Of a DNA stretch of 64,000 nucleotides, positions 3,001-6,000 are shown in pieces (position 1 is the first letter of the stretch; every line of letters starts with the position of its first letter). Source of the stretch: Escherichia coli (GTDB lineage: Bacteria; Pseudomonadota; Gammaproteobacteria; Enterobacterales; Enterobacteriaceae); NCBI RefSeq assembly GCF_016026235.1, contig NZ_CP065614.1; one strand, 5' to 3'. Made by a program: the position numbers.

Positions 3001-6000
3001 CCTGCCAGTACTGGTCCCTGGTGTTCCACAACCGGTGGTTGCTGGCAGAGATTAGCCGCATTGCAGCGGATGTGATACTGGAAATCTGCCATCAGGCAGA
3101 TGTGGAGCCGGGGATATTCACGGTGATCCACACATGGGGGCGTGACCAGCAGTGGCATCCGCATATCCATTTATCGACAACTGCCGGTGGTGTGACGTCG
3201 GGCCACACCTGGAAAAATCTTCATTTTTACGCCCGTAAGGTGATGAGCATGTGGCGCTACCGGATAACACGGTTACTGTCACGGAAATACCCTGACCTGG
3301 TGATGCCAGATGCGCTGGCAGCAGAAGGAAGCAGTAAACGGGAATGGAATCGCTTCCTGGACACGCATTACCGCCGTGGCTGGAATGTCAACGTATCCCG
3401 GGTGATGGATAATGCCACCCATGTGGCGGTGTACTTTGGCTCTTACCTGAAAAAGCCACCGGTGCCGGTGAGTCGTCTGGAGCATTATGCCGGTCAGGAT
3501 GAAATCGGACTGCGTTACAACAGTCACCGAACAAAACGGGAAGAATACCTGTTGATGAGTGGAGATGAGTTCATGGAAAGGTTCTCCTGGCATGTGGCGG
3601 ATAAGGGGTTCCGTATGGTGAGGTACTACGGTTTTCTGAGTCCGGCGAAACGGCGGTTACTGGAAGAAGTGGTGTACATCATAACGGAGACAGTGAGAAA
3701 AACGGCGATGCAAATCACCTGGAGAGGGATGTATCAGAGGTTACTGAAGGTTGACCCGCTGAAGTGCGTGCTGTGCGGGAGTCAGATGCGTTTTACGGGG
3801 CTGAAGCGGGGCTACCGTCTGGCAGAGCAGGTCCTGATGCATGAGCCGCTGGCCCGGATGCGGTGGTGCGGCTGAGAGCCGCAGAGGGTAAGTAGCGTCC
3901 ATTTTGAGGGAAACGGAGCAAAAAACCGCCATTCATACCCTGAATCAATCAGAGCCATCCAGTTTAATCGTCGGTTCCGTTCATATGAGCAAAAGTGGTG
4001 TTGAAGAAACATCCGTTTTGTGGTGTTTTTTTAATCTTTTTGGGGTTTTAATTCCTATCGATGAACGGAAGACGTTCAGCATAATCCCCCGGAACAGCGT
4101 TTCCTCATTCAGCGGGGCAAGGATAAAGGGGTCCGCTTGGAATTCGGAAATTTTCCCACGCTAAGAGAATTGAGTTAACGAGTGGTTACGTCCAGGCCAG
4201 CTAACTCACTGAACGTAAAGGCTGTACGAAATGTTCTGACCGTCCGATAACCGTCTGGCTTACTTCCGTACATTCCCTTGCGTGGATGTACAGAATTGTA
4301 CGATTTCGGACACCAAAACCGCTGTTATCCCGCCATCTTGGCGATTCCTGAAAGTCATTTATCTAAAAAATAGTCTTAACGTGGTTTATTTTCCGAATTC
4401 CAAGCGGACCCCTCAATAGACAGCGTGAATATCGATGGTTGCGCCACAGGCATGAGCATATTTTGTCAAAGTTTTCATGCTGGCCCCTAAAGGGTTACTT
4501 TCCAGGCGACTGATGGCTGACGGGCGTAACCCCATTCGTTCGGCCAGTGCTGACTTTGTTAATCCCGCTTTTTCTCTCATTTCGTATAACATTTCCACCA
4601 TCTCCAGTTCTTTGTCAGCATCCTCATACCCTTTGACAGCTTCTGGAGTACTGAGTAGTTTTTGCTTTACCTGGCTGAATGGAACACCTTTTACTTTCAT
4701 CAGTTCATCTCCTTCAGACGCATCCTGGCAATTTCAATAGCTTTCGTTGGTGTCTTTTGCGTTTTTTTCACAAATGCATGCAGCAGATAGATTTCGTTAC
4801 CCGTTGCATAAGCGTACAGTGTCCTTGCGATATTTTTATCCCCGACTCTCAGTTCAAAAAGCCCTCCGCCAATTACACGGCTGTGAGGCATTTTCATTTT
4901 GTTACCTTCCTGTTCCAGCCGTTCAATCAGTCTGGTCATACGACCACGCAGATTGTCTGGTAATTCTAGAAGTTCATCCAGTGCGGCCGGGTGAGTAATC
5001 ACATTAAACATATTATAGCCTCCAGAATGACAAAATACACTAAAACAGGAAAATTGCGCAAACAGTAAATTTCATCAATAAATGAAAATACACTCTGAGT
5101 TCGGAGGGGGGCAACTGGAGAAGAGGGATTTTTTGATGCCGCGTTAGCGGCATGGAAGGCGGCACTCCGTTGTTGCATATGGCACAGGAGTAAAACCGCC
5201 GAAGCCCGGCGTAAGCCGGTACTGATTGACAGATTTCACCTTACCCCCGTTACTTTATTCGTACCCCTTATAATGGGGTGTTAGCCAGCCAGACCCGGCA
5301 TGATTACTGCCCCCAGTCGTCCATGATCCGGGGGGTGATGTCACCGGGTCTGGTGGGGCGCTGGTAACCGCTAATAGGGGTCAGGTCAGGCACTTTTGCC
5401 GGGACCGTCTGTAACGTGGATGCCGGTACCTGCTCCCCGTGGTTATCTGGTTAACCCATATACAAGGGAGACAGAATGACCGAATCCAGCGATTACGAAT
5501 CCGTCCAGGTCTTTATCGGCGTTGATGTCGGTAAAGATACGCATCACGCTGTTGCCATTAATCGTTCAGGTAAACGCCTGTTCGATAAAGCATTACCCAA
5601 CGACGAAAACAAACTCAGGTCGCTAATATCTGACCTGAAACAACATGGTCAGATACTGCTGGTTGTTGATCAGCCAGCTACCATCGGTGCGTTACCTGTC
5701 GCCGTTGCCCGCTCAGAAGGAGTCCTTGTCGGATACCTCCCTGGACTGGCCATGCGCCGCATAGCCGACTTACACGCCGGTGAAGCTAAAACTGATGCTC
5801 GTGACGCTGCCATCATTGCCGAAGCTGCCCGTACCCTGCCTCACGCGCTACGCACGCTGAAACTGGCTGACGAGCAAATCGCCGAACTCTCCATGCTCTG
5901 CGGCTTCGATGATGATCTTGCCGCACAGACAACGCAGGCCAGCAACCGTATCCGCGGCCTTCTGACCCAGATACATCCGGCACTGGAGCGCGTTCTCGGT

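Follow-up and report, generated by a model that had tools for sequence, protein, structure and literature searches.

A noncoding 285-bp unit with Tn3-type ends

The DNA analyzed here (the window) is a stretch of 64,000 nucleotides from Escherichia coli contig NZ_CP065614.1. It belongs to a pINV-type plasmid of Shigella and enteroinvasive E. coli (EIEC) and is 100% identical to S. dysenteriae NZ_CP026826, on which the neighbors are ospD3, ospC1, an IS91-family element, a toxin-antitoxin pair, ISEc20, and ospE2. The subject of this study is a noncoding unit of 285 bp (positions 4128-4412, plus strand), which sits between the end of the IS91-family element and the 3' end of the toxin-antitoxin operon. 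It is flanked by 38-bp inverted repeats (IRs) of the GGGG...ACGYTAAG Tn3-family type. The left repeat, IR_L (4128-4165, plus strand), reads GGGGTCCGCTTGGAATTCGGAAATTTTCCCACGCTAAG and is a presumed end for transposase binding and cleavage. The right repeat, IR_R (4375-4412, minus strand), reads GGGGTCCGCTTGGAATTCGGAAAATAAACCACGTTAAG, which appears on the plus strand as CTTAACGTGGTTTATTTTCCGAATTCCAAGCGGACCCC.

IR_L and IR_R are identical at 33 of 38 positions, the outermost 23 bases being all alike, and they lie 209 bp apart; a repeat finder rated the arms as 84% complementary over 45 nt. No open reading frame (ORF) of 50 or more amino acids was found inside the 285 bp. An earlier note on this DNA had described two facing 38-bp repeats around some 210 bp of noncoding sequence, with the right repeat abutting the stop codon of the antitoxin gene. 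Both descriptions were confirmed: the outer end of IR_R at 4412 touches the stop codon, which starts with the next base, 4413. The outer 23-mer, with up to three mismatches allowed, matched the 64-kb window only at these two arms, as did a degenerate Tn3-type pattern, and the expectation in shuffled sequence was 0.00 for both. With this expectation and with thousands of homologous copies elsewhere, a chance inverted repeat is excluded. Copies in pINV-type plasmids of S. dysenteriae and E. coli were 100% identical to the window element, and those in other plasmid types were 91-96% identical. Both repeats of the window copy agreed with the family consensus.

TIMEs, miniature elements of Tn3 origin with inverted repeats, are defined here as mobile units of ~50-500 bp that contain no transposase gene, have ~38-bp Tn3-like IRs, and duplicate 5 bp (sometimes 6 bp) of their target. 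The window element has the size and repeat type of this class and contains neither a transposase nor a resolvase gene. The 5-bp duplication was found for the family but not for the window copy, whose bordering 5-mers (ATAAA on the left, TCAAT on the right) form no direct repeat, as had been noted before. We consider it probable (roughly 0.8) that positions 4128-4412 represent a complete, non-autonomous miniature transposon of the Tn3 family, i.e. a TIME that consists of two ends and a res-like site and from which tnpA and tnpR have been deleted.

The interior resembles the res region of autonomous relatives

Autonomous transposons with the same repeat start (GGGGTCCGCTTGGAAAACGGAAA...) were present in L022, L029, L058, L060, L065, and L093 (L numbers designate loci that were compared with the window). 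Their layout is IR, tnpA, ~160 bp, and a divergent tnpR. The tnpA gene (994 amino acids) reads outward and ends 34 nt from the tip, and the tnpR product (192-198 amino acids) contains the Pfam domains Resolvase and HTH_7. WP_021242989.1 is an example of TnpA from the L065/L093 type of transposon, and WP_012695450.1 is an example of the cognate TnpR. Annotated in RefSeq only as "Tn3 family transposase," TnpA of this group was detected with an identity of 95% or higher in no fewer than 316 plasmids, their hosts being Klebsiella, Citrobacter, Enterobacter, E. coli, and Salmonella, among others. Its identity to the Tn21-clade transposases of TnAs3, ISPa38, and TnShfr1 is ~56%. IR_L was identical to the tnpA-proximal IR of the L065 transposon at 35 of 38 positions and IR_R at 32 of 38. 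This likeness to the IR of a Tn3-family transposon that encodes TnpA bears out the earlier proposal of Tn21/Tn1721-like ends and of a Tn3-derived miniature element. Element and relatives have the first 15-23 IR bases in common (32-35/38 over the full repeat) and a homologous intergenic region with three blocks in the same order. They differ in that the relatives comprise at least 4 kb with TnpA, TnpR, and cargo, whereas the element is without any gene. In one plasmid, IS4321 directly followed tnpA of such a relative; because IS4321 targets Tn21-type repeats, it probably sits within the transposon repeat there.

When read from IR_R to IR_L, the interior of the element aligned colinearly with the ~160-bp tnpA-tnpR intergenic region of the autonomous relatives. 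Local alignment scores were 32-46 for the window copy and 46-70 for a Citrobacter copy, compared with 19-20 ± 3 for shuffled sequences. A multiple alignment revealed three blocks common to the element and the autonomous relatives, with their order kept. These blocks consist of TGT(A/C)CGAAA-type half-sites, and when 23 distinct copies were compared, their columns proved to be the best conserved of the interior. Half-sites of the form GT[AC]CG[ATG][AT]A occurred four times in the interior (0.08 expected) and the half-site core GT[AC]C[GA] 11 times (1.4 expected). Site A (4287-4312), a 26-bp dyad of the form TGTACAGAA-8 bp-TTTCGGACA, falls in the alignment with the autonomous relatives on their tnpA-proximal dyad and is a candidate res crossover site. 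Site B (4241-4272), a 32-bp dyad (CGTCCGATA-14 bp-TTCCGTACA), is a candidate accessory resolvase site; its counterpart in the tnpA-tnpR intergenic region of L022, L029, L060, and L065 reads TGTCCGAAA-14-TTTCGGAYA. Block C (4214-4231; CGTAAAGGCTGTACGAAA) is a candidate for the third, tnpR-proximal resolvase subsite.

In Tn3, res is located between the divergent tnpA and tnpR genes, and site I lies beside tnpA (PMC7157771). The interior of the element thus appears to be a res-like resolvase site with candidate subsites A, B, and C. Because it is homologous to an intergenic res region and both ends are kept, the element looks like a deletion derivative that has retained ends and res. A conserved subterminal tract beside IR_R (4355-4374, minus strand; ACTATTTTTTA...) is in line with this: its sequence (…AAAAAATAGTCTTAA) resembles the final codons and the stop codon of tnpA in the relatives (…AAAAAACAGTCTTAG), and it could be what remains of the deleted transposase gene.

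The symmetry of the interior could also be understood in another way, as a structured RNA or as a transcriptional or terminator element of the antitoxin operon, the terminal repeats then being merely a long hairpin. Folding of the interior, a check suggested by the earlier note, yielded only a weak signal. The minus strand folded slightly better than shuffled sequences (z = -2.86), the plus strand did not (z = 0.13), and no Rfam match was obtained even at E ≤ 1. Moreover, the dyads are accounted for by resolvase-type half-sites, and the element was met in either orientation and in contexts unrelated to one another. A structured RNA was accordingly rejected, and we regard this explanation as extremely improbable.

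Evidence for transposition of the element family

Perfect 5-bp direct repeats (TTAGA, TAAAT, AAGAA, and TATAA) bordered the element in 4 of 27 distinct flank pairs. Random re-pairing of the flanks predicted 0.26 duplications (P(≥4) = 5e-5). The copy with the TTAGA duplication (L095, E. coli p1604D011-1) splits an IS66-family element. The corresponding empty site was detected as well, uninterrupted in hundreds of cases: among the matches listed, the joined flanks with one TTAGA were matched across the junction as a single BLAST piece of 99.7-100% identity. These matches include E. coli chromosomes and plasmids. Some match to the joined-flank query was found in 3,015 of 5,426 E. coli genomes, the filled form of the site in two records only. 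The same unit was observed in 27 distinct contexts, for one of which the empty site is available, and the flank duplications together with the pair of filled and empty sites demonstrate that the element family transposes.

The bases adjacent to the ends were AT-rich, with T directly following the right end in 18 of the 27 pairs and A directly preceding the left end in 15. AT-rich targets are usual for Tn3-family transposons, and the observed composition is as expected for them. The duplications listed for TIMEs serve as a comparison (PMC13367494). With at least 27 flank contexts, some 5-bp duplications, and one empty site, the suggestion made earlier that the element may be mobilizable in trans would be the best reading of the data.

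Several observations weigh against this interpretation of the window element. The window copy has no target duplication (ATAAA / TCAAT). Other pINV sequences had been proposed as a place to look for the empty site, but in the plasmid collection none was found for the window junction; all 33 full matches to the joined flanks carried the element. With neither a duplication nor an empty site, the insertion event of the window copy itself is undocumented, and this copy shows no sign of recent movement. The window encodes no cognate transposase. The IR_R variant (AATAAACCACG; GGAAAATAAACCACG) was not found on any autonomous transposon, and block C, the third res block, has no clean dyad. Finally, the modest similarity of the res regions and the IR identities of 32-35/38 suggest that the relatives used for comparison are cousins of the element rather than its direct parent.

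A candidate for the empty site of the window insertion, L088 (...GATAAA|TCAATAG), was rejected, as the left flanks of the different contexts are non-homologous apart from AAA. Likewise, two candidates for an autonomous parent were discarded. Rahnella locus L046, in which 4.3 kb lie between two repeats, contains an IS110-type gene but no TnpA. Tn5403, a Tn3-family transposon of Enterobacteriaceae, carries no passenger genes and has tnpA and tnpR in divergent orientation, but its repeat (GGGGTCGGTTCCGGCTGAGGGCGAAATGACACCCTAAG) differs and its TnpA is only 34% identical (Tn5403 copy in p271A). A minus-strand ORF of 131 amino acids at 1909-2304 of the window is a C-terminal remnant of another Tn3-family TnpA. 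It aligns with residues ~870-966 of the TnpAs tested at 33-37% identity, and no recognizable terminal repeat was found beside it.

Proposed mechanism and secondary rearrangements

In the mechanism that we propose, TnpA from a related autonomous Tn3-family transposon would bind both repeats in trans. The outcome would be replicative transposition with duplication of 5 bp of AT-rich target, for which the duplications and the empty site of the family speak. A cognate serine resolvase would then act on sites A, B, and C and resolve the cointegrate, as the homology to the intergenic region suggests. In a third step, intramolecular transposition or recombination between dispersed copies may swap or invert the flanks. 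This last step, to which the flank patterns point, would explain the lack of matching duplications in most copies, including that of the window. Because no cognate transposase is encoded in the window, the copy would at present be a passenger; potentially it is mobilizable and a recombination site.

The homology breakpoints of truncated and hybrid copies and of half-elements concentrate at element positions ~160-185, which correspond to site A. In E. coli IncK2/Z plasmid p1_FT34 (L120, 3324-3615), IS101-like positions 1-191 are fused to element positions 171-285, the junction lying within GTACG/ATTTCGGAC. The reciprocal type was seen in L121 (3501-3690) and L122 (3501-3682), where a left part of the family ends in a repeat of the gamma-delta/IS101 type. 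All three junctions are in the GTACG(A/T)TTTCG(G/T)AC motif of site A. Intramolecular replicative transposition produces junctions located exactly at a repeat tip; those inside site A fit site-specific or short-homology recombination.

Further arrangements were observed around the ends. The metagenome copies L097 and L104 have a common right flank and different left flanks. In Rahnella woolbedingensis (L047, 1202-2558), IR_R and a complete site A of a related element are directly followed by an unrelated toxin/helix-turn-helix (HTH) pair and then by a fragment of IR_L in direct orientation; the homology stops just behind site A. Toxin-antitoxin modules of Tn3-family transposons adjoin res site I and are exchanged there (PMC7157771), and the arrangement in L047 fits this published neighbor rule. 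The E. coli toxin-antitoxin module touches IR_R by its antitoxin end in the window and by its promoter end in L002; it lies 112 bp from IR_L in L101 and is parted from an element fragment by an IS91 end in L085. These patterns suggest that copies of the element take part in secondary rearrangements.

One might go further and propose that the sequence in this plasmid has ceased to be a transposon and is now nothing but a fixed site for site-specific recombination, a portable res or a hot spot of rearrangement. The res-like interior, the lack of matching duplications in most copies, and the missing cognate transposase in the window agree with such a proposal, and so do the exchanged left flanks of L097 and L104 and the IS101-type hybrids, which join exactly in site A. 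However, both window repeats match the family consensus and give no indication of dead ends, and the resolvase, too, would have to come from elsewhere. As a sole explanation we judge this to be unlikely; it complements the interpretation as a TIME and does not replace it.

The toxin-antitoxin pair belongs to the plasmid backbone

Directly to the right of the element and outside of it, an HTH (XRE-type) antitoxin of 95 amino acids is encoded on the minus strand at 4413-4700, preceded on that strand, at 4700-5011, by a toxin of 103 amino acids with the Pfam domain Gp49/PF05973 (RelE/HigB-like). The antitoxin was also present without the element in L086-L090. The full pair was detected in 106 plasmids or more. 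It is located ~0.9 kb from an IncFII or IncI-gamma/K repA gene in L085 and L087-L090; no element copy lies beside it in L087-L090, and L085 has an 87-bp element fragment only. The window pair is separated from any repA by ISEc20, which extends from 5244 onward.

The earlier note had raised the possibility that the pair is remnant cargo of a larger Tn3-family transposon, of which the element would be another remainder. Toxin-first Gp49/HTH pairs are indeed a known type of Tn3-family cargo beside res site I (PMC7157771), a toxin/HTH pair directly follows site A of the related Rahnella element in L047, and the same E. coli pair lies near the element in several arrangements (window, L002, L085, and L101). 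Cargo of this kind would be expected inside the repeats, beside res site I or tnpR. The window pair, in contrast, is outside IR_R; the full pair is carried by no fewer than 106 plasmids, and L087-L090 have it beside repA without an adjacent copy. Conversely, the complete 285-bp unit was found in many contexts that lack any toxin-antitoxin pair, and the Rahnella toxin has no BLASTP similarity to the window toxin, the antitoxins being only 30% identical. The cargo explanation is thus largely refuted, and we consider it very unlikely. Because the pair lies outside the repeats and occurs beside repA without an adjacent complete element, it is plasmid backbone beside which the element landed or to which it was brought.

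The DNA downstream of the antitoxin stop codon (…AAA|TCAATAGAC) was different in each plasmid context examined (window, 4413; L002, 4995; L085-L090, 3001). Beyond the stop codon lay the end of an IS (IS91 or ISEc20), the miniature element, or unrelated DNA. Owing to these differences, the antitoxin stop is taken as a recurrent rearrangement boundary of the toxin-antitoxin/replicon module. On the other side of the element, a stretch of 67 bp (4062-4128) separates IR_L from the IS91-family end; it is a fragment of a 217-amino acid ORF that is intact in metagenome contig L101 (7106-7172). The left flank of the window copy is therefore the remnant of a disrupted gene, the other half of which is not to the right of the element.

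Comparison with named miniature elements

The sequences of IS101, IMU, MITESen1, and TIME244 were taken from Table S2 of PMC13367494. The interior of the window element gave local alignment scores of 15-18 with these four TIMEs, equal to the shuffle means of ~17.5, whereas the repeats were identical at 18-31 of 38 positions. Identity of the element with any of the four was rejected, since the likeness is restricted to the repeats.

IS101, a 209-bp TIME of pSC101, has a functional res and is mobilized by Tn1000/gamma-delta, as shown experimentally (PMC4133298, PMC13367494). Like the element, in which the res is a candidate one, it consists of two Tn3-family 38-bp repeats around nothing but a res, without genes, and resides on enterobacterial plasmids. 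In contrast to this similar architecture, its interior is no more similar to that of the element than shuffled sequences are, and its repeats are identical at only 18-21 of 38 positions. Its res type and presumed transposase belong to another clade; the relatives of the element have TnpAs ~56% identical to those of the Tn21 clade. The function of IS101 is an experimental result, that of the element a prediction from sequence.

TIME244 (MITEEc2) is 244 bp long, carries a Tn21-type res, generates 5-bp duplications, and has been implicated in res-mediated inversions (Gomi & Yano 2026, PMC13367494). It is a res-carrying TIME of Enterobacteriaceae plasmids, as the element appears to be, and its Tn21-like left repeat is identical to the element repeats at 27-30 of 38 positions (30/38 for IR_R). 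The interiors are unrelated (score 17, shuffle mean 17), the res of TIME244 resembling that of Tn21/Tn1721 and the res-like site of the element the intergenic region of the group with divergent tnpA and tnpR. IMU (288 bp) and MITESen1 (256 bp) are similar to the element in size and in one repeat, the left repeat of IMU matching at 28-31 of 38 positions (28/38 for IR_L, 31/38 for IR_R) and the right repeat of MITESen1 at 28-30; both interiors are unrelated to that of the element.

An autonomous relative of MITESen1 was encountered on an E. coli STEC1588 plasmid (L094, 33320-37185). It is a 3.87-kb tnpR-tnpA transposon with repeats identical to those of MITESen1 at 34-35 of 38 positions, and its TnpA is 74% identical to TnpA of the element's relatives. 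No similarity of MITESen1 to characterized res sites had been reported (PMC13367494). Its interior, however, aligned with the tnpR-tnpA intergenic region of L094 (score 62, shuffles 20.6 ± 3.6), for which reason MITESen1 probably also carries a res-like site. The window element did not align with this MITESen1-type intergenic region.

ISfinder contained only three enterobacterial MITEs (miniature transposable elements bounded by inverted repeats) in January 2026, before TIME244 was added (Gomi and Yano, PMC13367494). In the literature searched, neither the repeat sequence nor any Tn3-type miniature element from IncF or pINV plasmids was found to be described, ISfinder, TnCentral, and the supplements of the MITE catalogue PMC11602168 being outside the search; the element is provisionally regarded as unnamed. 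What is new is the element itself, a member of the already known TIME class with a conventional mechanism, and not a new kind of system. With its res-like interior, it would contribute a third type of res to those TIMEs that carry one.

Distribution and significance

The 285-bp query matched 2,168 plasmid records, and in 565 of these the match covered 80% of its length or more, the hosts being Escherichia, Klebsiella, Shigella, Salmonella, and Citrobacter. Among 5,426 complete E. coli genomes, 1,502 (27.7%) had a match and 537 (9.9%) a match with at least 80% coverage; 1,639 of the match places were on plasmids and 224 on chromosomes. For comparison, 3.5% of the RefSeq genomes of Enterobacteriaceae contain one or another of the four named enterobacterial TIMEs (PMC13367494). 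The element is unusually prevalent for its kind, although the comparison of 27.7% and 9.9% with 3.5% is indicative only, as the denominators differ. All copies examined were unannotated or hidden beneath a "hypothetical protein" label.

The contexts were mutually unrelated and comprised pINV, IncI-gamma, ColV/ColBM IncF, IncFII, and IncI1 plasmids. One of them was an E. fergusonii IncI-gamma/K1 plasmid. On an IncF plasmid, the immunity genes for colicin V and colicin B flanked the copy; Klebsiella IncFII plasmids had truncated copies beside IS26 and parM; and on IncI1 plasmids, a parA-like gene had a copy downstream of it, which was complete in L094 but broke off at base 87 in pESBL-12. Elements of ~285 bp that were 70-88% identical to each other and to the window copy were present in Citrobacter sp., two Xenorhabdus species, Cedecea colo, and metagenome-assembled genomes, and a metagenome scan added 24 complete copies. 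Besides many Enterobacterales, Shewanella and Vibrio contained the repeat start in an exact-pattern scan with one genome per species.

Miniature Tn3-derived elements escape gene-based annotation, yet they can move neighboring genes as composite units and supply recombination sites. The element described here accounts for a puzzling junction in the virulence plasmids of Shigella and EIEC and can serve as a marker when rearrangements near the replicon regions of IncF, IncI, and IncK plasmids are reconstructed. It is of value for annotation and for understanding how plasmids were rearranged, rather than as new biology. A bolder view, which we find doubtful but conceivable, is that the element has been overlooked as a major force behind the rearrangement of E. 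coli and Shigella plasmids, its copies acting as portable crossover sites. If so, copies would swap flanking DNA, invert segments such as the replicon-linked toxin-antitoxin module, and hybridize with the unrelated IS101 within site A, and the element would help to shape virulence plasmids such as pINV.

A few minor observations concern other members of the family. Further toxin-antitoxin modules adjoin family copies or solo repeats, namely Phd/Doc in an E. coli plasmid (L006, 6207-7038) and a VapC-like ORF in Cedecea colo (L041, 254-1291). In a Klebsiella IncFII plasmid (L004, 3981-4000), a 13-nt partial repeat start (GGGGTCCGCTTGA) directly precedes a copy that has its IR_L complete but is truncated at base 205. 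In Photorhabdus cinerea DSM 19724 (L009-L020), the repeat start was found ~105-127 nt from many contig ends, which indicates that a high-copy element of this family breaks the assembly.

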